A DNA stretch of 64,000 nt from Candidatus Binatia bacterium (GTDB lineage: Bacteria; Desulfobacterota; Binatia; UBA9968; JAJDTQ01). Location of the stretch: NCBI GenBank assembly GCA_963666515.2, contig OY762897.2, positions 4,320,001 to 4,384,000 of the forward strand. The letters are read 5' to 3'. Shown here piece after piece: positions 2,195 to 11,220 of this stretch. The position numbers and the translations under genes were made by a program. The first letter of the stretch is position 1. Every line of letters starts with the position of its first letter. The notes beneath the pieces were generated by a model. It did no database searches, was not told the origin of the DNA, and was given only the letters and a program-made list of their open reading frames with translations.

Positions 2195-2446
2195 GAGCTT
2201 GCTGATGGTGTTGTAGAAGGCGAAGCCCGAGGCCGTGCGAAGCGCTCCGTCCGGGTCATGCAGTCCGCGCTGGTTCAACTCCGCCTAGCGCTTGAGCGCC
2301 TCCCCCTTGGGGTCCGCCAGCACGCAGTCGAGCCGGCGCAGCACTGTCAGCGGCAGGATGACGTCCTGATACTTCCTGCGCTTGAAGCTGTCGCGGATCA
2401 GGTCCGCGACGCTCCAGAGGAAGCTGACGATCTCGCTGTGGTTCAT
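2195..2446 (-). pseudogene. hsdM: 5' remnant of a second hsdM allele
   Basis: MNHSEIVSFLWSVADLIRDSFKR... matches the 5' end of hsdM at 11122; has a frameshift, a TAG stop and a 126-bp deletion. Confidence 0.9.
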
Positions 2447-2585: not shown

Positions 2586-4456
2586 CTAGAATCCTTGATC
2601 GACAGGATCTTGACTCAGGAAGACAAGATATTTGAACTGGACTTCGTTCGTACATGAATACTATCGTAGGCCATCGCGAGTTGTAACGCTCGGTAGTTTA
2701 AGCGACGAGCTTCGCCTCATCGCAAATGGCATCGAGGTTCCTGGTGATGGCGGCAAAGCGCCGATGGGTCTTGGTATTGCCGCTCACGGCGTCGGGCGCA
2801 AGATGGGCCAGGCCGGGGCGAAGGATGCGGTTGTAGACACGCGTGTAGAACATCGCCACCTTGAGGCCGTGTTCGGTCAAGTGGTAGCGGTAGGCGCCGG
2901 GGATGCGCTCGATCAGGCCGTGCAGGCGCAGGCGTCTCAGGTCGTAACTCATTCGGCCCGGGCGCATTGGACTGGGATCGAGGCCCAGGAGTGCACCGAG
3001 GTGCCCGCGCAGGTCGCGGTTGGAGAAGCCGCGGGCCGAAAGAGTGAACAAGAGCAGGGCCTGCATCAGAGCCTGCACGCGCTCATCGGCGAAGCGCAGG
3101 GCCGAGGCGCGTTGTCCGTGGAACTCCAGGCCGCGTTGATGGCGTTGGAGTTCGTCTTCACCCAGGGCACAGTCGTGGCTGATGGTTTCTATCTGCAACA
3201 GACGACGGTTGGCTGTGAAGCCGACCTGGCACAACGCCGCCAGGTTAGACAGCCGCCGGCCCAGGGCGAAGTCATAGGTGTCGTTGACGGTGGTCTCGGT
3301 GCGCAGCGCCTGCCCTTCCTTGTGGTACTGCTTGATGCGCGAGTGCTTGTAGTCCACGTGCAAGGAAGGGGTGACGCCTGCGGTGATGACCCGGGTACGG
3401 AACCGACCGGGGGTGCGCCGGGTGACCCGGCGCTGGAAGATCAACTGCACCTGGCTGGGGCGACCGAGATCGAGGTTCTCGCGGATCACGTCCTCGAAAA
3501 AGACGCGGCCCGAGGCCGGGCGGTCGAGCACCTGGGTCAGGCTGAACTCCGCTTGCAGGATGGAGATGTCGTAGCGCAGACCGGCGCGACGGTCCTGAGG
3601 CGTATACGGATGCGGCAGGCGATCGAACCACTTGCGCGCCAGTCTGTCGATGAAAGCGGCATCGAAGCCTTCGCAGATCTGTTGCAGCGCCTCGGGGTCT
3701 CCGCAGCAGCGCACGCCGTTGTCCAAAGCCTCGAACGGGATGCCGCGCTCGCGCAACTGGCACTTGGCGTACTCGTTGCCGTTGAGGCACAGCTTGCCGT
3801 TGTACGGGAAGTAGGTGCAGAACTTGATGAAGAACGGCCCCGCCTGTTTGTCCACGCAATAGAAATACACATGGTTGACCATCGCGGTAGACGAGACCAC
3901 CCACGGATAGGTGACCCCGGTGTCCGGGTTCCGGCGCCGCTCGGTGCGCATCACACGGGCCTTCTCCTGCGCTATCCCGATGTACAAAACCCCTTCGGTT
4001 CCCTTGAACCGCCCCAGGTACTCCTGCGTCACCTCGTCCTTGCGCTGGCCCTTCTTGAAGTGCACCACCTCGATCTGCTCCCGCTCCGCAAAGTCCTTCA
4101 CCGCCTGCACGAACTCCCGACTCTTGGGCGCCAGCGCCACCGTCGACGCAAACCGCTGGCCATGGTGCTTGTGCAGATACCCCACTACCCCGCCCACGCT
4201 CTGCAACTGCGGCACATACAGGTTCAAGTACAGGCGATCCACCGACTCGTATTCCAGCGTCACGTGATCGCGCAATACTTCCGCTACGGTTTGTGGTAGG
4301 CTCATGTCCGGCTCCGGTTGCTTCGGGCTTTTATGCCCATTTGACCCTTTGAGGTCCGACCTTGCAAGGTCCCATGACCAGGGATTCAATCCCTGCTACA
4401 AGCGACCGGAGCCAATCCCCTTACCCCCTCGTCGGTCTGAGGCGAAGCCTCGCTAG
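2586..4456 (-). mobile_element. Putative CTAG-bounded IS-like element with a Rep_trans-like protein
   Basis: CTAG at 2586-2589 and 4453-4456, hairpins just inside both ends, one long ORF, no TIRs. Confidence 0.55.
2698..4305 (-). CDS. Putative transposase/replication-initiator-like protein with C-terminal winged helix (535 aa)
   Basis: IKQYHKEGQALRTETT (YxK...RxE) motif; C-terminal MSYDLRRLRLHGLIERIPGAYRYHLT wHTH; start MSLPQTV. Confidence 0.7.
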   Translation of the reverse strand: MSLPQTVAEVLRDHVTLEYESVDRLYLNLYVPQLQSVGGVVGYLHKHHGQRFASTVALAPKSREFVQAVKDFAEREQIEVVHFKKGQRKDEVTQEYLGRFKGTEGVLYIGIAQEKARVMRTERRRNPDTGVTYPWVVSSTAMVNHVYFYCVDKQAGPFFIKFCTYFPYNGKLCLNGNEYAKCQLRERGIPFEALDNGVRCCGDPEALQQICEGFDAAFIDRLARKWFDRLPHPYTPQDRRAGLRYDISILQAEFSLTQVLDRPASGRVFFEDVIRENLDLGRPSQVQLIFQRRVTRRTPGRFRTRVITAGVTPSLHVDYKHSRIKQYHKEGQALRTETTVNDTYDFALGRRLSNLAALCQVGFTANRRLLQIETISHDCALGEDELQRHQRGLEFHGQRASALRFADERVQALMQALLLFTLSARGFSNRDLRGHLGALLGLDPSPMRPGRMSYDLRRLRLHGLIERIPGAYRYHLTEHGLKVAMFYTRVYNRILRPGLAHLAPDAVSGNTKTHRRFAAITRNLDAICDEAKLVA

Positions 4457-4550
4457 TTGATTTGACATGTAATTTGGGAATTATAAAGAATACTTGACAG
4501 CCCCTCCGTAATCCTGTATGCTCATTACATCAACTCAAGGGAGCACGGCA

Positions 4551-5537
4551 ATGGGCAAACAGAAGGCACCGGGCAAGAGTTACCGCAAGGGGTTGTCGGT
4601 ATTCGAGCTGTTCGAGATGTTCCCGGACGAGGCGGCGGCGCGCCGCTGGTTCGAGGGCGTCCGGTGGGCTGCTGGCCGGTACTGCGGGCACTGCGGGTCC
4701 GACGACACGCATGAGGTTCCCAACGAGAAGCCCATGCCGTACCGCTGCCGGACCTGCCGCAAGTACTTCAGCGTGAAGGTCGGGACCCCGATGGAGTCCA
4801 GCAAGCTCCCGCTCCGCAAGTGGGTGGTCGCCATGTACCTGATGACCACGAACCTGAAGGGCGTCTCCAGCATGAAGATTCACCGGGACCTGAAGGTCAG
4901 CCAGCCCACGGCCTGGTTCATGATTCACCGTATCCGTGAGACGTGGAACGCCGAAGGCGGCAAGCCGTTCCGTGGCCCGGTCGAAGTGGACGAGACGTAC
5001 ATGGGCGGCAAGGAGAAGAACAAGCACTCCAGCAAGAAGTCCAAGGCCGGGCGCGGAGCCGTGGGCAAGACCGCGGTGGTTGGCATGAAGGACCGCGACA
5101 CCAACACCGTCAGCGCCGAGGTGATAGAGAGCGCCGATGGACTGACCCTGAAAGAGTTCGTGCTGGATCAGACCGGCCCGAGAACGCGCGTGTTCACGGA
5201 CGAGCACAAGGGCTACCAGGGGCTGCCGAACCACCAGACCGTCAAGCACTCGGTCGGCGAGTACGTGGACGGCATGGCGCACACCAACGGGATCGAGTCC
5301 TTCTGGTCGTTGCTCAAGCGTGGCTACAAGGGCACCTACCACAAGATGAGCGCCAAGCACCTTCAGCGGTATGTCAACGAGTTCTCCGGGCGGCACAACG
5401 TCCGGTCCAGGGACACCCTGGAACAGATGGCGGCTATCGCCCGCGGGTTCACCGGGAAGCGGCTCCGGCTCCAGGACCTCACCGGCGCGCCGGACAAGGA
5501 CGTGCCGGTAGCGGATGCTGGCAGCGATGTGTTCTAA
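4551..5537 (+). CDS. IS1595-family transposase
   Basis: Zn ribbon CGHC...CRTC; VEVDETY, VFTDEH, HTNGIESFW and YVNEF motifs. Confidence 0.95.
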   Translation: MGKQKAPGKSYRKGLSVFELFEMFPDEAAARRWFEGVRWAAGRYCGHCGSDDTHEVPNEKPMPYRCRTCRKYFSVKVGTPMESSKLPLRKWVVAMYLMTTNLKGVSSMKIHRDLKVSQPTAWFMIHRIRETWNAEGGKPFRGPVEVDETYMGGKEKNKHSSKKSKAGRGAVGKTAVVGMKDRDTNTVSAEVIESADGLTLKEFVLDQTGPRTRVFTDEHKGYQGLPNHQTVKHSVGEYVDGMAHTNGIESFWSLLKRGYKGTYHKMSAKHLQRYVNEFSGRHNVRSRDTLEQMAAIARGFTGKRLRLQDLTGAPDKDVPVADAGSDVF

Positions 5538-6222: not shown

Positions 6223-6807
6223 ATGCGCGCCCTTCTCGCCACCCTCACGGTGGTCTTGTTCTCGTATGCCTCGGCATTCGCCCATACGCCGCAAAAATGC
6301 GTGGCGCTGTTCCACGAAGCGGCGAAGATCAACCAGGACGCGGTTGACTGGGGCGAGCGCGTGCAGGGGACCAGCCTTGAAATGCTGGACAGCCGCGTCG
6401 GCTCTCACCGCGACCGCTACCGCCGCTACGACAGCAACCGCGTCGAAAAGCATGCCGATCTGCTCGCTCAGTTTTGGGGACGGCTCACGAAGCGTGACCT
6501 AGCCATCGCCGAAGCGGTGAAGTGCGTGGACGGGCAAGGCGCGACACCGGCCAAGGCCAAGGCGCCCGACTACCGTGCGGAGATCATCGAACACGCCATC
6601 GAGCCATGCCTTCTGGCAAAAGTTCGGCAGCAGGGACTGGACAAGACACTGGGGGAAGCGAAGGCGCTATCCCTCATGAAGCTGATGACGAAGAAATCCA
6701 CGGAGAGGTCCGTCCGGGCCTTGGAGCCCATTGTCCGTGGCAAGAACTGGAAGAGTCGAAAGGCTCTCTACGGCCAGAGCGCGGCAATCTGCGCCAAGTC
6801 GAAGTGA
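6223..6807 (+). CDS. Secreted hypothetical protein (194 aa), passenger
   Basis: AGGAGGTG RBS; signal peptide MRALLATLTVVLFSYASAFA; four Cys. Confidence 0.75.
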   Translation: MRALLATLTVVLFSYASAFAHTPQKCVALFHEAAKINQDAVDWGERVQGTSLEMLDSRVGSHRDRYRRYDSNRVEKHADLLAQFWGRLTKRDLAIAEAVKCVDGQGATPAKAKAPDYRAEIIEHAIEPCLLAKVRQQGLDKTLGEAKALSLMKLMTKKSTERSVRALEPIVRGKNWKSRKALYGQSAAICAKSK

Positions 6808-6814
6808 GGTTCCC

Positions 6815-7219
6815 ATGCTCATTCTCGTCTTGCTGTTGTCGTCAGGCTTGGCTCACGGCGCGGGGATCGAGGTTCCGGCCCGCGTCGTGAGCGTCTACGA
6901 CGGCGACACGGTGAAGGTGGAAGCCGCCATGTGGCCCGGCATGACCTGGAACGGCAGCGTTCGCGTCCGCGGCGTCGATACCCCGGAACTCCGTGGCAAG
7001 TGCGAAGCCGAGAAGGTCAAGGCCAAGGTGGCCCGCGACTTCGTGCGCGTCCGGATCGGCAAGCGGGTGGTACTGACCGACGTTCAGAAGGGCAAGTACG
7101 CCGGACGCGTGGTCGCGGGAATCAGGCTGGCGGACGGGTCCGACCTGACAGCCTTACTGATCCGGCAAGGCCACGGACGACCTTATGGCGGCGGACGGCG
7201 GCGCGGGTGGTGCCCATGA
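6815..7219 (+). CDS. Thermonuclease (SNase) family protein, secreted
   Basis: VYDGDT, VRVRGVDTPE and GKYAGRVVA motifs; hydrophobic N-terminus. Confidence 0.9.
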   Translation: MLILVLLLSSGLAHGAGIEVPARVVSVYDGDTVKVEAAMWPGMTWNGSVRVRGVDTPELRGKCEAEKVKAKVARDFVRVRIGKRVVLTDVQKGKYAGRVVAGIRLADGSDLTALLIRQGHGRPYGGGRRRGWCP

Positions 7220-7232
7220 CCCAAGGGCGGTT

Positions 7233-7487
7233 TTAGCTGCGAAGGCTTTCCAGGGCTTCCTGCCCCGTCCACGTCAGGCTGCCCACTTCGTAGCGCGGGA
7301 ACCGTTCCTCGGCACCGGATACGACCTCCACATCATCGAGGTATCCGGCCTGATCGCACAGCTTGATGTGGTAGCTGATCTCTTCGGGGGTGAACTTCTT
7401 GCAGACAGGGAGCGGCGCGGGCGAGAGCGTGGTTTTCTGTTCGACGTGCTCCAGAATCCAGCGGATCAAGGACATGTTGCGTTCCAT
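7233..7487 (-). CDS. DUF2513-like winged-helix protein
   Basis: MERNMSLIRWIL...ISYHIKLCDQAGYL...LTWTGQEALE. Confidence 0.8.
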   Translation of the reverse strand: MERNMSLIRWILEHVEQKTTLSPAPLPVCKKFTPEEISYHIKLCDQAGYLDDVEVVSGAEERFPRYEVGSLTWTGQEALESLRS

Positions 7488-7563
7488 CGGGCTCCCCTTT
7501 TCCTCCCATCCTATCACCCGGAACCCGTTGCTTCCAGTCTCCGCTTTCTGGTAGTGTCGCCCG

Positions 7564-7713
7564 ATGCCTACAAAGCCCGCCAAGAAGCCGAAGCCCGAAC
7601 ACCGCCCGATGCCGGAGGATGCCCGCGACTTGGCGCGGGCGATGTTCCGGGCGGCGGATCGGAAGTTGAAGAAGGAAGGGGCAGCACAGAAGCCCGCTGC
7701 CCAGGGGCGCTAG
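7564..7713 (+). CDS. Small basic ORF (49 aa) next to the right TIR
   Basis: MPTKPAKKPKPEHRPMPEDARDLARAMFRAADRKLKK...; translated by hand, below the ORF-track cutoff. Confidence 0.4.
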   Translation: MPTKPAKKPKPEHRPMPEDARDLARAMFRAADRKLKKEGAAQKPAAQGR

Positions 7714-7860
7714 GTTCGCCCCTCCAGCCTACCGGCGCGAATCGGCGCCGTCAACTATTCTTTATAATTCCCTGTAATTTTGAGGGGACAGGTTGTCGCC
7801 AGATGCTTGTTTCGGCTGACGGACTGCTGTAAGGTATCAAACGGTCAGGAATGGACAGCC

Positions 7861-8163
7861 GTGAGAATCGTCAGCCGGAAAGCGTTGAAGGAATTTTGGG
7901 AGCGGCCCAGCCGTAGCGATGCTGAGGGTCCCCTCCGTTCATGGTACAAGGAAGTGGAGAAGTCCGACTGGGCGACGCCGGCAGACATCAAGGCACAGTT
8001 TCGCTCTGCGAGCTTCCTCGCAAACAACCGGGTGGTGTTCAACATTGCCGGCAACAAGTACCGGCTGATCGTATGGGTAAACTATCCCGCCCGTTTGATG
8101 CTTGTTCGTTTTATTGGCAACCACAGGGAGTATGACGGGATCTCGGACCCATCGAAGATATGA
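7861..8163 (+). CDS. higB: HigB-family toxin
   Basis: GTG start; RIVSRKALKEFW...NRVVFNIAGNKYRLI...FIGNHREYD. Confidence 0.92.
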   Translation: MRIVSRKALKEFWERPSRSDAEGPLRSWYKEVEKSDWATPADIKAQFRSASFLANNRVVFNIAGNKYRLIVWVNYPARLMLVRFIGNHREYDGISDPSKI

Positions 8164-8178
8164 AGTACGAGGCAGACT

Positions 8179-8877
8179 ATGGATCTTAGACGGATCAAGA
8201 CCGAAGCGGATCATCGGGCCGCTGTCGCTGAAATTGAAGCGCTGATGGGCGCTGAGCCGGGTAGCGAGGCGTTCGGCCAGCTTGAACGGCTCGCGAAGTT
8301 AGTGGACGCTTACGAGGCCAAAACTCACCCAATAGCGGCACCGGAACCGATTGACGCATTTATCTTCCACCTGGAGCAACTTCGGGACCCTCGCGTCCAG
8401 ATTTCCAACTACCCCAACGTTTCAAGCAAACTGAAGGAGTTGGGCTGCTCGCCGCCCAAGGGCATTGGTATCCTACCCGATCGGTTTGACACCCTTACAT
8501 CCAAGGACGCCTTCGCACGGGTATCTTTGACAGGCCCGGTAGTGAAACTGCTCAAAGAGAACAAGATACCAGTTTCGATAATTAAACGGGAAGGGCAGAC
8601 ACTGCCGACCAGTCGCACTGCCTCGTCCAAATGGGTCGCGCCGACCCTCCTGGTATCTGCTGCGCTCTGGTTGCAGAATCCTGAGGCTGTCTCTCTTGCC
8701 CTTGGCGTAGTCGCCAACTATTTGGCCGACCGATTCAAGGGGACAAAGGCCGAGTTAGATATAGTGCTCCAGGAGGACGGATCAAGGCCGTGCAAGAAAA
8801 TCAGCTACAAAGGACCCGTTGAAGGACTGAAAGAACTGCCTGAAATTATCAAGTCGGCAAGCCGTCCTTCGCGTTGA
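8179..8877 (+). CDS. HigA N-terminal domain fused to an unrelated ~165-aa domain (no HTH)
   Basis: First ~68 aa HigA-like (IKTEADHRAA...YEAKTHPIAAPEPIDAF); remainder is not an XRE HTH. Confidence 0.75.
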   Translation: MDLRRIKTEADHRAAVAEIEALMGAEPGSEAFGQLERLAKLVDAYEAKTHPIAAPEPIDAFIFHLEQLRDPRVQISNYPNVSSKLKELGCSPPKGIGILPDRFDTLTSKDAFARVSLTGPVVKLLKENKIPVSIIKREGQTLPTSRTASSKWVAPTLLVSAALWLQNPEAVSLALGVVANYLADRFKGTKAELDIVLQEDGSRPCKKISYKGPVEGLKELPEIIKSASRPSR

Positions 8878-8947: not shown

Positions 8948-11122
8948 TCAGTGTCGTAGTTGACCGGCCCGCATGTCCTTCAACATCTCCAGGATGTCAT
9001 CCTCGATAGCCTGGATGTCCGCCTCGATCTCCGCGATGGGCCGGGGCGCCTTGTAGCGGTAGAAGTAGCGGTTGAAGTTGATCTCGTAGCCGACGAGTCC
9101 GACCTTGGCGTCCCGGTGGTCCCGTTTCGACGTGTCGATCCAGGCGTCCGGGACATGGGGCTTGACCTCGTGCTCGAAGAACGCCCGGACGCTGGCGGGC
9201 ACGCCATCGGCGTCCGCGGGGTCCTCTCCCTCCGGGAGCGGCACGCGCTCGGTGTCCCGAAGCTCCGGGTCGGGTTCCGGCCTGCCGTCCGCGTCGCGAC
9301 AGATATCCGCCTTCTCGTCGCGTTCGGCGAGGGCCGTGAGGATTGCCTTCTTCACCGGCGCCGGCAGCTTGATGCCGGCCTTGGTGGTGGCCGTCGTGAG
9401 TGCCGCAAGAAAGGCCTCGCGGTCCTTGCAGATGGTATCGGGCATCCGCTTGAGCATGGTGCGGATGGCTTCCTGCCGCGCGCGGCCCTCGGCCTCCTCC
9501 CTGGCTCCGGCGTCGCCGCGCCTCCTCGATTTCGCCAGGTTCTGAAAGCCCTTCTGCTCGTCCAGACGGGCGATGCGCTCGGGGCTTGCGTGGAAGTTGA
9601 GCCGTAGCGGGCGCTCGACGGTGATCTTGCGGAAGCCGAACCGGGTGGTGGGAAAGATGCGGCTGACGGTCACTTCCTCTTCGTTCCCGTCCTCCGTGCG
9701 CGTGCGTGTCTCGCCGTCCTTGTGACCGGACCGGAGACTCAGCACTTCCGCGGCCATTTCCGGCGGTATCTCGCGCCGCTTGTCGCCGAGGCTCCGGCGC
9801 ATGGGCGACCAGAGGGAAGTGGCGTCGATGAGCTGCACCTTTCCCCGTCGTTCGGGCGTCTTGCGGTTGGTCAGGAGCCACACGTAGGTGGCGATGCCCG
9901 TGTTGTAGAAGAGCTGCTCGGGCAGGGCGATGAGCGCCTCCAGCAGGTCGTTCTCCAGGATGAAGCGCCGGATCTCGCTCTCGCCGCTGCCGGCGTCGCC
10001 GGTAAACAGGGGCGAGCCGTTCATGATGATGGCGATGCGCGCGCCGCCCTGGTCCGGCGGCCTCGCGTGCGCGAGCATGTGCAGCAGGAACAGGGTCTGC
10101 CCGTCGCTGATACGCGGAAGGCCCGGCCCGAAGCGTCCGCCCGGACCGCGCTGGTGCTCCGTCTCGACCGTCTCCTGGTCCCGTTTCCAGTCCTTGCCGT
10201 AAGGCGGGTTGGCGATCAGGTAGTCGAAGGTCTGGCCGGGGTGGCGGTCGTTGGACAGGGTGCTTCCGAAGGCGATGTTCTCGGCGTCGCGGCCCGTCGG
10301 GTCCTTCATGAAGATGTCCGACTTGGACACCGCCCAGGTCTCCGGGTTCACTTCCTGTCCGAAAAGGTGGATGTCGGCCGCGGCGTTGATGGCGGGTCGA
10401 AGCAGGTCCGTCCCGGTCGCGCCGCCGTTTCGCCGCACTCCGACCGTGACGTGTTCCTTGGCGATCATCAGCATGCCGCCGGAGCCGCAGCAGGGGTCGT
10501 ACACGCTGCGGATGGCGCCCGGAGCGGCGATGAGGCTCTCGTCTCCGGCCAGCATGAGGTCCACCATCAGGTGGACGACGTCGCGGGGCGTGAAGTGCTC
10601 GCCGGGGTTCTCGTCCAGCGCCTCGTTGAACCGTCGGATCAACTCCTCGAAGATCGTCCCCATGGTCGGGTTGTCGATCCGGTCCGGGTGCAGGTCCACG
10701 TTCTTGAAGCGCTCCAGCACCTGGAACAGCAGGCCGGCTTCTTCGAGCTTGCTGATGGTGTTGTCGAAGTCGAAGTGCTCCAGCACGCTGCGCATGTTCC
10801 CGCTGAAGCCGGCGATGTAGTTCCGAAGGTTCGCCGCCACCTGCGGCGCGTCGCCCAGCAGCTTGTCGAAGTCGTAGCGCGAGGTGTTGTAGAAGGCGAA
10901 GCCCGATGCCGTGCGCAGCGCCCCGTCGAGGTCGTGCAGCCCGCGCTGGCTCAACTCCGCCTGGCGCCTGAGCACCGCCTCCTTGGTGTCCGCCAGCACG
11001 CAGTCGAGCCGGCGCAGCACCGTCAGCGGCAGGATGACATCCTGGTACTTCCCGCGCTTGAAGCTGTCCCGGATCAGGTCCGCGACGCTCCAGAGAAAGC
11101 TGACGATCTCGCTGTGGTTCAT
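8948..11122 (-). CDS. hsdM: Type I restriction-modification N6-adenine methyltransferase
   Basis: GEHFTPR, YDPCCGSGG, ANPPY and GYEINFNRYFY motifs. Confidence 0.95.
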   Translation of the reverse strand: MNHSEIVSFLWSVADLIRDSFKRGKYQDVILPLTVLRRLDCVLADTKEAVLRRQAELSQRGLHDLDGALRTASGFAFYNTSRYDFDKLLGDAPQVAANLRNYIAGFSGNMRSVLEHFDFDNTISKLEEAGLLFQVLERFKNVDLHPDRIDNPTMGTIFEELIRRFNEALDENPGEHFTPRDVVHLMVDLMLAGDESLIAAPGAIRSVYDPCCGSGGMLMIAKEHVTVGVRRNGGATGTDLLRPAINAAADIHLFGQEVNPETWAVSKSDIFMKDPTGRDAENIAFGSTLSNDRHPGQTFDYLIANPPYGKDWKRDQETVETEHQRGPGGRFGPGLPRISDGQTLFLLHMLAHARPPDQGGARIAIIMNGSPLFTGDAGSGESEIRRFILENDLLEALIALPEQLFYNTGIATYVWLLTNRKTPERRGKVQLIDATSLWSPMRRSLGDKRREIPPEMAAEVLSLRSGHKDGETRTRTEDGNEEEVTVSRIFPTTRFGFRKITVERPLRLNFHASPERIARLDEQKGFQNLAKSRRRGDAGAREEAEGRARQEAIRTMLKRMPDTICKDREAFLAALTTATTKAGIKLPAPVKKAILTALAERDEKADICRDADGRPEPDPELRDTERVPLPEGEDPADADGVPASVRAFFEHEVKPHVPDAWIDTSKRDHRDAKVGLVGYEINFNRYFYRYKAPRPIAEIEADIQAIEDDILEMLKDMRAGQLRH

Positions 11123-11154
11123 GAGGCTACTGACACAAGGGCCGGGGCCAAGGC

Positions 11155-11220
11155 TCAAGCCTCTCGGTCAGCGGCGAATGCCAAGCAGGCGTGGATGTCG
11201 GCACGCTCGAGATCCGCGTC
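11155..11220 (-). pseudogene. C-terminal remnant of a DUF433-type antitoxin
   Basis: DADLERADIHACLAFAADREA* directly after the grdA stop. Confidence 0.55.

Follow-up and report, generated by a model that had tools for sequence, protein, structure and literature searches.

What kind of DNA occupies positions 2586..4456 of a 64,000-nucleotide stretch of contig OY762897.2 (assembly GCA_963666515.2, Candidatus Binatia bacterium; hereafter the window, meaning the whole stretch that was analysed), and how does it come to be there? An earlier note on this DNA had described a CTAG-bounded element that lacks terminal inverted repeats and carries a single gene, and had proposed that it is a transposon targeting CTAG and encoding a Rep_trans enzyme. 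We find that this 1871-bp element, which lies on the minus strand and runs from a 5' junction CTAG (4453..4456) to a 3' junction CTAG (2586-2589), belongs to a mobile family with exact ends and a CTAG target. The family probably constitutes an undescribed group of insertion sequences (IS) in which a Rep_trans-like tyrosine nuclease follows a single-strand or rolling-circle route into CTAG. The open reading frame (ORF) is single, as had been noted, and encodes a putative transposase of 535 amino acids (2698..4305, minus strand; ATG at 4305, stop codon at 2700-2698) whose start methionine is the same in its homologues. The spacing of the bounding tetramers was also described correctly, with 2586-2589 reached at the 109th base past the stop codon and 4453-4456 lying 148 bases before the ATG.

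Similarity between the window and copies from Caballeronia and Burkholderia begins at 4456 and stops at 2586, and elements of the family measure 1791-1949 bp. Ten genomes have more than one locus, and in these the copies have an element-sized block in common and nothing beyond it. One actinomycete metagenome-assembled genome has five loci with a common block of 1811-1812 bp at 99.7-100% identity; other multi-locus sets are 96-100% identical and two are more diverged (83% and 90%). The Caballeronia and Burkholderia plasmid copies (loci L001 and L002) align over 1814 bp at 94.7% identity and have unrelated flanks. Copies are found inside chromosomal contigs of up to 2.66 Mb as well as in plasmids, again with differing flanks, and in annotated plasmids of Burkholderia, Caballeronia, Rhodococcus and Mycobacterium the gene occurs several times per record, also as fragments. 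Several short contigs run from the first to the last base of the element, like collapsed repeats (contig L011, for example, is 1817 bp long and extends from CTAACG through CTAG). The family is thus mobile, and it is so in at least 10 phyla or classes.

A site without the element was found on a Burkholderia plasmid beside an IS66-family gene, where the sequence reads ...ATGGACATT-CTCG-ACTCGCTTCGG..., and its filled counterpart in Caballeronia reads ...ATGGACATT[CTAACG...AATCTAG]ATTCGCTTCGG...; flank identity between the two is 85-90%, and in the empty site exactly one tetramer separates the flanks. When the flanks on either side of 46 insertions and of the window copy were compared with all loci, no empty site besides this one (L001/L085) came up, and the flanks of L002 matched only the same insertion in two sister plasmids. 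At locus L054 an older, diverged copy lies upstream of a complete one, head to tail with it, and the complete copy starts precisely at the older one's terminal CTA, as would be expected were the element's own 3' CTAG a good target. CTAG itself occurs 18 times in the 64,000 bases of the window against about 206 occurrences expected from base composition, an approximately 11-fold under-representation; since it is so rare and stands exactly where similarity to the relatives ends, the two CTAGs that bound the element are not there by chance. Among other tetramers of the window TTAA is also low (11 against 59 expected), and GATC and CATG are above expectation. The view that this is an ordinary single-copy chromosomal gene with coincidental CTAG boundaries would agree with the window, which holds one copy each of the element, its protein and its 26-nucleotide 5' terminal block, but it is hardly credible, being refuted by the identical multi-copy elements in different flanks and, in addition, by the empty site, the CTAG junctions and the rarity of CTAG.

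In the direction of the ORF the 5' end of the family reads CTAA-C-GAGGC-TCC-GCCTC-AGACCGACGAG, and the 3' end consists of the box AAACTTGACTCAA, about 20 variable bases, TCAAG, five further bases and CTAG. Terminal inverted repeats are indeed absent, CTA(G) being all that the two ends have in common (CTAG in the window copy). If up to 3 substitutions are allowed, 68 of 84 sources, from many phyla, contain the first 20 nucleotides of the 5' end, most of the remaining 16 being cut by a contig end; protein identity among the kept loci is 55-75%, so this terminal 20-mer is conserved more than the protein. In the window the conserved 5' terminal block is CTAGCGAGGCTTCGCCTCAGACCGAC (4431..4456, minus strand), a putative cis-acting site for nicking and binding, which occurs once in the window and was matched 0 times in 100 shuffles. 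It contains a subterminal hairpin (4439..4451, minus strand) with a 5-bp stem (4447-4451 with 4439-4443) and a 3-nucleotide loop (4444-4446). Beyond it, conservation of the 5' untranslated leader (4306..4452, minus strand) is limited to the first ~30 nucleotides and the region of the ribosome site, and an Rfam scan of the whole window, which found no family at gathering score, gives no reason to suppose that the leader contains a known structured RNA.

The hairpins that had been noted just inside both ends fare differently at the two levels at which they can be judged. Across the family, all of 140 stem-pair cells (28 distinct sequences, five pairs each) can pair at the 5' end, compensatory changes are seen in two of the five pairs (A-T to G-C and C-G to T-A), and the loop varies freely. 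In the window copy neither hairpin rises above shuffled sequence (z of +0.20 at the 5' end and -0.10 at the 3' end), and since the same is true of single sequences generally, the case for the hairpins rests on covariation and conservation. A third position is correlated with the stem in alignment A6 (columns 7, 17 and 21): sequences with G:C in place of A:T at pair 7:17 have C (once G) and not A at base 21, which lies three bases past the stem, and this hints at a contact beyond the stem. In an acidobacterial subgroup (L021, L028, L040, L043 and L045) about 20 more bases upstream are conserved and CCAG or TTAG stands at the place of the usual 5' junction; the true 5' end of this subgroup lies further out.

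What does the element insert into? We compiled 46 distinct insertions for which both ends and at least 12 nucleotides of flank were available, starting from 67 5' ends, 53 of them with a located 3' end, and dropping rows with short flanks and duplicates; the window copy is absent from the set owing to its diverged 3' box. The 5' junction is CTAA in 43/46 insertions and CCAG in the other three. The 3' junction was called CTAG in 44/46 and CTAA in 2/46 by the script, and the true figure is 45/46, L057 having been mis-called (its CTAG lies 5 nucleotides upstream, at the usual distance); the CTAA at the 3' junction of L048 is genuine. The element is therefore CTAG-bounded, as had been claimed, at its 3' junction across the family, but not at its 5' junction, where the CTAG of the window is a variant of the CTAA found in most relatives. 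Because the fourth base on the left is constant and that on the right can vary with the flank, CTA is common to both junctions, the A on the left being part of the element and the G on the right part of the target.

Outside the junctions, A stands at position -4 of the left flank in 38/46 insertions (against 7-19/46 at other left-flank positions) and T or A at -1 in 35/46. The right flank has no mirror-image preference (T at +4 in 4/46), and recognition of the target is thus asymmetric. The palindrome AACTAGTT, which the earlier note obtained by removing the element and one CTAG, is particular to the window's site and is a local accident. Three other descriptions of the target were tried and rejected: a 4-bp CTAG target duplication, since the 5' junction is constantly CTAA and the 3' junction CTAG; insertion 3' of a flanking CTAA in the manner of IS608, since the empty site ends in G and the 3' junction of L048 is CTAA; and palindromic recognition, since the flanks are asymmetric.

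A few loci depart from the usual arrangement. At L012 (2825-2843 and 4659-4670) the heptamer TGCGGTG stands on both sides of the element and the 5' junction is CCAG instead of CTAA; the heptamer could be flank carried over from a previous site. At L038 (4500-4803) a tandem repeat comprises the final ~150 bp of the element, the first 3' end lacking CTAG and running into the repeat, which could be an assembly slip or a product of termination or read-through. The copy at L018 is 99.9% identical to L016 and loses similarity directly after the box AAACTTGACTCAA (4610-4622), so that it is without the last ~33 nucleotides including CTAG. Finally, the copy at L042 (1226-1775 and 3001-4255) is split by an insertion of ~1.2 kb flanked by an 11-bp direct repeat, ACCTATCCGTG.

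What protein, then, do these elements carry? By sequence it is nearly anonymous. A Pfam search of the 535-residue protein gave a single sub-threshold winged-helix match (AbiEi_4, E 0.06), sequence searches of the Protein Data Bank (PDB) gave weak winged-helix matches to the C-terminus alone (MarR/MepR, E 0.08-0.4), and NCBIfam, PHROGs and PADLOC gave no match. The lack of a recognizable DDE, HUH, serine-recombinase or tyrosine-recombinase signature, which the earlier note had remarked on, is borne out by Pfam and NCBIfam, in which no such family is matched. The protein is nevertheless very common: a word-indexed search returned at least 8000 homologues, and an exhaustive search of representatives returned 10,355 clusters at 50% identity with E<=0.001, 1214 of them with E<=1e-30. 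Among the 120 matches listed, all homologues are called 'hypothetical protein' or are unnamed and most lie on contigs of 1.75-2.3 kb; RefSeq annotation in plasmids is likewise 'hypothetical protein', and a protein atlas showed unnamed clusters alone. No longer fused form, such as a helicase fusion, was found at E<=1e-10, which is weak evidence that there are none. A scan of species-representative genomes found 130 coding relatives, of which the best 80 loci were kept. The hosts of these 80 are Gamma-, Beta- and Alphaproteobacteria, Acidobacteriota, Actinomycetes, Verrucomicrobiota, Myxococcota, Gemmatimonadota, Chloroflexota, Planctomycetota, Armatimonadota and one spirochaete bin.

Structure is more informative. 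An AlphaFold2 model built from an alignment of 27 sequences has a pLDDT of 84.6 over the full protein, and residues 1-380 (3166..4305, minus strand), the putative catalytic domain, have a pLDDT of 91.2 and a pTM of 0.89. In the model the ten long strands of this domain are divided between two halves that follow one order (S1, helices, a four-strand meander, a helix; strand order S1-H-S2-S5-H), an arrangement like that of the TATA-binding protein (TBP), and is followed by a helical linker and a winged helix. Foldseek comparison of the domain alone with the PDB placed four chains of 4cij, the Rep_trans initiator RepSTK1 of plasmid pSTK1, at ranks 1, 2, 3 and 5 (E 5.9e-4 to 2.1e-3, probability 0.94-0.98), with archaeal and eukaryotic TBPs at probabilities of 0.60-0.82 and RepDE (4cwe) at 0.66. 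With the full model 4cij scored 0.95 and MarR/MepR structures scored 0.95-1.00 for the C-terminus. The predicted C-terminal winged helix-turn-helix (residues ~405-500; 2806..3093, minus strand) that the earlier note had pointed out is thus weak by sequence and well supported by fold. HUH structures reached no meaningful probability in the fold search (TrwC 0.16), and RNase-H-like or DDE folds were not matched in the PDB fold searches. A comparison with viral models gave eight matches at E<=1e-3, and several of these are proteins with a TBP fold; the top one is A0A7S5V094, an unnamed protein of 468 residues (E 1.3e-6), and others include A0A2N9QVX7 and the Inoviridae protein A0A345MNV4 (probability 0.98). 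According to PMC13107129, the latter two are also matches of the archaeal initiator RepSNJ2, and A0A345MNV4 is a PF02486 protein.

Residue conservation was assessed in 140 near-full-length members (117 from the word-indexed and 23 from the exhaustive search). Y327, R335, Q251, E253 and Y147 are invariant (140/140), D23 is found in all 134 sequences aligned there (6 gaps), and T304 (136/140), K325 (139/140), K329 (138/140) and E337 (138/140) are nearly so. The YxK and RxE motif that had been recognized in the translation, within IKQYHKEGQALRTETT (residues 324-339; codons for K325-Q-Y327-H-K329 through R335-T-E337 at 3295..3333, minus strand, Tyr327 at 3325-3327), is therefore a family feature, Y327-x-K329 and R335-x-E337 being kept in 138-140 of the 140 members. 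In the model K325-x-Y327-x-K329 lies on strand 322-329 and R335-x-E337 on the adjacent strand 333-340. The conserved residues as a group sit on S1, S1', S2', S4' and S5', and the order of an N-terminal Asp, QxE, T304, KxYxK and RxE parallels Rep_trans motifs N', I, II, III and IV. Candidate acidic metal ligands, by conservation and position in the model, are D23, E253 (or E114) and E337, invariant or nearly so and on separate strands; a second invariant tyrosine pair, Y147 and Y149, is on the first half.

For Rep_trans proteins PMC4797284 (Carr et al.) and PMC5714925 describe the same kind of arrangement: a 10-stranded crescent (PMC4797284) with an N-terminal Asp, RxD, T/SxY/ExG, YxKxxE, whose nucleophilic Tyr is part of a strand, and W/LxRxE on the strand that follows, and three acidic residues on separate strands that bind metal (D46, D142 and E214 in RepDE). 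We regard a Rep_trans-like fold class as well supported for the modelled domain, but not membership at the sequence level, and to this extent the Rep_trans enzyme of the earlier note stands: 4cij is its best PDB match, and PF02486 does not include it. What that note had listed as able to refute it (no fold match, single-copy synteny, or ends off CTAG) is the reverse of what was found, since a fold match exists, copies are multiple and near-identical in different flanks without synteny, and alignments end at CTA(A)/CTAG.

Could the protein be a DNA-binding or regulatory factor only, a TBP-like fold joined to a winged helix, with the element moved in trans by some other enzyme? DNA binding is what the TBP fold is best known for, the fold matches include TBPs, and the winged helix is clear. 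This is nonetheless a very improbable account, since the element has no other gene and is yet mobile in at least 10 phyla or classes whose host machinery differs, a nuclease and not a TBP is the closest structure in the PDB, and the polar residues lining the sheet are invariant and include Tyr, Lys, Arg, Glu and Asp in Rep_trans order. Slightly less improbable, though still doubtful, is a tiny rolling-circle replicon or satellite for which the protein is the replication initiator, integration at CTAG is secondary, and the contigs of ~1.8-2.3 kb are free circles. Such a replicon would suit the Rep_trans-like fold, the many homologues on 1.75-2.3-kb contigs among the matches listed, and the resemblance of the conserved 5' block and its hairpin to a nicking and binding origin of the pT181 layout. 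It sits poorly with the copies in long chromosomal contigs and plasmids with differing flanks, and with the short contigs among the scanned sources, which span CTAACG to CTAG like collapsed repeats and do not break at arbitrary points with overlapping ends.

Several observations weigh against a Rep_trans-like tyrosine nuclease acting on single strands. Overlay on Rep_trans structures gives a low TM score (0.26-0.35 with a root-mean-square deviation of 11-13 Å, and 0.26-0.46 throughout), so that the fold claim is limited to topology and local geometry and does not extend to a tight global overlay. PF02486 was matched by 0/27 family members at E<=10 (the control, RepC P0276, scored 1.3e-10), and hhalign against a RepC profile gave a probability of 0.1, with a profile of low sensitivity, narrow in its 10 sequences of 80-93% identity (the RepC search behind it had found only staphylococcal proteins 86-100% identical). 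Motif I is QxE and not RxD, and 8 residues separate the Tyr from RxE as against 21 in pT181 RepC. The end hairpins do not exceed shuffles in single sequences (z +0.2 to -1.8), the single empty site is in an 85-90% identical paralogue and has the tetramer CTCG, and the window copy, single there and with a diverged 3' box, may no longer move. A homodimer prediction for two copies of the C-terminal domain (residues 345-535) scored 0.01 and counts neither way. Lastly, a double-strand mechanism that duplicates 3 bp of target would explain the apparent duplication of CTA just as well.

That last point leads to the main rival, in which the same mobile element and transposase use metal-dependent double-strand chemistry by acidic residues (D23, E114, D152, E253 and E337), cut-and-paste or copy-paste, with a true 3-bp CTA duplication, and Tyr327 is not a nucleophile. 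CTA at both junctions together with a one-tetramer empty site is formally a 3-bp duplication, invariant acidic residues are many, and the TM of the fold match is low. On the other side, the ends are unrelated in sequence and have no inverted repeats, no RNase-H-like or DDE family or fold is matched, the target flanks are asymmetric, and Tyr327 is invariant in a K-x-Y-x-K strand that is followed by R-x-E. We consider the metal-only chemistry unlikely, and the tyrosine nuclease the better reading.

If the protein is a tyrosine nuclease, a scheme can be built by analogy with Rep_trans enzymes and with HUH single-strand transposases, the scheme for IS608 being taken from general knowledge; by this analogy we infer catalysis by tyrosine, the strand and position of cleavage, a circular single-stranded intermediate, and copy-out versus excision. 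Recognition of the asymmetric ends, 5' CTA-A-C-hairpin-AGACCGACGAG and 3' CTTGA...TCAAG-N5-CTA, would fall to the winged helix and the basic crescent. Tyr327, with K325 and K329 on either side, would attack a single strand at each end, inside CTA or immediately after it, the metal being held by R335/E337, Q251/E253 and D23. Cleavage, like that by Rep_trans and HUH enzymes, would leave a free 3'-OH and a 5'-phosphotyrosine link. Joining of the element's 3' CTA to its own first base would then give a single-stranded circle with the junction CTA-A, and the donor would be resealed as CTAG or recopied by replication primed at the nick. Insertion of the circle into CTAG, preferably A-N-N-(T/A)-CTAG, would produce CTAA at the 5' end and CTAG at the 3' end without inverted repeats, the CTA of the 5' junction coming from the target and its fourth base being the first base of the element. 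The proposed scheme would account for the CTAA and CTAG junctions, the one-tetramer empty site and the L048 exception, and likewise for insertion at a resident 3' end, the missing inverted repeats and the asymmetric flank preference.

How does such an element compare with known systems? The best solved-structure match is to Rep_trans (PF02486: pT181 RepC, pC221 RepD, pSTK1 Rep; 4cij, 4cwe), with which the protein has in common, as modelled, the ten-stranded crescent of TBP topology, a basic-x-Y-x-K strand with R-x-E on the next, an N-terminal Asp and a separate DNA-recognition domain; the DNA site is in both cases a hairpin and an adjacent conserved block. Rep_trans enzymes nick site-specifically with a 5'-phosphotyrosine adduct and are dimeric. 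Unlike them, the element protein has 535 residues against ~270-314, large helical insertions and a true MarR-like winged helix; it lacks membership at the sequence level, has QxE for RxD and a much shorter Tyr-RxE hairpin, and is carried by a multi-copy chromosomal insertion element and not by a plasmid, filamentous phage or integrative and conjugative element. In the pT181 origin the hairpin loop includes CTCTAA and thereby CTAA, and RepC presumably nicks inside it; we take the parallel as a lead only.

A second relative by structure is Rep-Arvir/RepSNJ2 (DUF7845) of archaeal viruses and plasmids. According to PMC13107129 it too combines a TBP-like catalytic domain with a MarR-like winged helix, is related to Rep_trans by structure only, has its catalytic Tyr in a lysine-rich strand and finds the same kind of fold matches (including A0A2N9QVX7 and A0A345MNV4), but it is archaeal and a replication initiator of viruses and plasmids. 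No DUF family of Pfam was matched by the 27 members at E<=10, DUF7845 included, although the presence of that model in the Pfam copy was not confirmed.

Among transposable elements, IS608 has no terminal inverted repeats, has subterminal hairpins at both ends, makes no classical target duplication and inserts beside a specific tetranucleotide by way of a single-strand circle and a 5'-phosphotyrosine enzyme. The anatomy of our element fits this scheme, and so resembles IS200/IS605 (HUH Y1 TnpA); it differs in that its protein has no HUH or Y1_Tnp signature or fold and is three to four times larger, its target and end tetranucleotides have CTA in common, and there is no TnpB gene. With IS91, ISCR and Helitron elements (HUH Y2) it has in common asymmetric ends and tandem and partial 3'-end arrangements (L038 and L054); Helitrons, moreover, have a hairpin a few bases before a 3' terminus that reads CTRR, often CTAG. 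The nuclease superfamily is a different one, the element protein has no helicase domain, and the target is CTAG rather than AT or GTTC/CTTG. The DDE insertion sequences of the IS5 and IS630 groups prefer CTAG or CTAR and have inverted repeats and a TA or tetramer duplication; our element has a target of the CTAG type but neither inverted repeats nor a DDE transposase, nor is a duplication of that kind seen. Nor does it resemble IS110/IS1111 (DEDD, bridge RNA), there being no DEDD match in Pfam or NCBIfam and no Rfam family in the window.

In PMC5714925 (2017) and PMC13107129 (2026) Rep_trans is reported only for plasmids, filamentous phages and conjugative elements. A literature search, whose coverage did not extend to ISfinder or most subscription journals, turned up neither the terminal sequences nor any paper in which insertion sequences are connected with Rep_trans or TBP-fold proteins. 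It seems to us an evenly balanced question whether these elements define a further mechanistic class of transposase, a TBP-fold tyrosine nuclease unrelated to the DDE, DEDD, HUH, serine and tyrosine-recombinase enzymes that moves a 1.8-kb single strand into CTAG, the rarest tetranucleotide of many genomes; Rep_trans replicons would then relate to these elements as HUH Rep proteins do to IS91 and Helitrons. Were this so, a very abundant family of 'hypothetical proteins' could be named and given a function, thousands of contig breaks in assemblies, so far unexplained, would be accounted for, and Rep_trans/TBP-fold nucleases would extend to transposition in parallel to the HUH enzymes (Rep, relaxase, transposase). 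It would also bear on why genomes avoid CTAG, and insertion of DNA at a short defined sequence by one protein would be of interest as a tool, the conserved 26-nucleotide end and its hairpin being a directly testable substrate.

Within the window, the copy itself is intact in its ORF and 5' end and altered at its 3' end. Its 3' terminus, ATCAAGGATT-CTAG (2586..2599, minus strand), is the TCAAG-N5-CTAG end of the family, and the place of the box AAACTTGACTCAA is occupied by a hairpin, ATCTTG...CAAGAT, in this copy (2607..2629, minus strand); no match to the box with at most 2 mismatches was found anywhere in the window. The interval 2590-2697, from stop codon to 3' end, is ~66 bases longer than in the copies from Caballeronia and Burkholderia. 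The window copy may be ageing and has perhaps lost its mobility. A scan for sigma-70-like promoters found none on the ORF strand inside the element.

The neighbouring genes are other mobile and defence genes. Next to the 5' junction is the gene of an IS1595-family transposase (4518-5537, plus strand; DDE_Tnp_IS1595, 9.8e-39, and a zinc ribbon), which starts 62 bp outside that junction and has promoter-like sites at 4462-4522; the element may have inserted at the end of this neighbouring IS or within that end. Directly outside the 3' junction lies an N-terminal fragment (53 amino acids) of an HsdM-like methylase (2285-2446, minus strand), and a full type I methylase gene (8948-11158, minus strand; N6_Mtase and HsdM_N) is 6.5 kb from it; the fragment repeats the start of the full hsdM, bases 2401-2455 matching 11077-11131 with 96% identity. 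The stretch between the two holds mobile and toxin-antitoxin genes. A Gp49-like/HTH pair (963-1677), a HigB-like toxin with a 232-residue ORF without family downstream of it (7780-8877), and SNase-like and DUF2513 ORFs (6731-7583) together look like an accessory or defence island.

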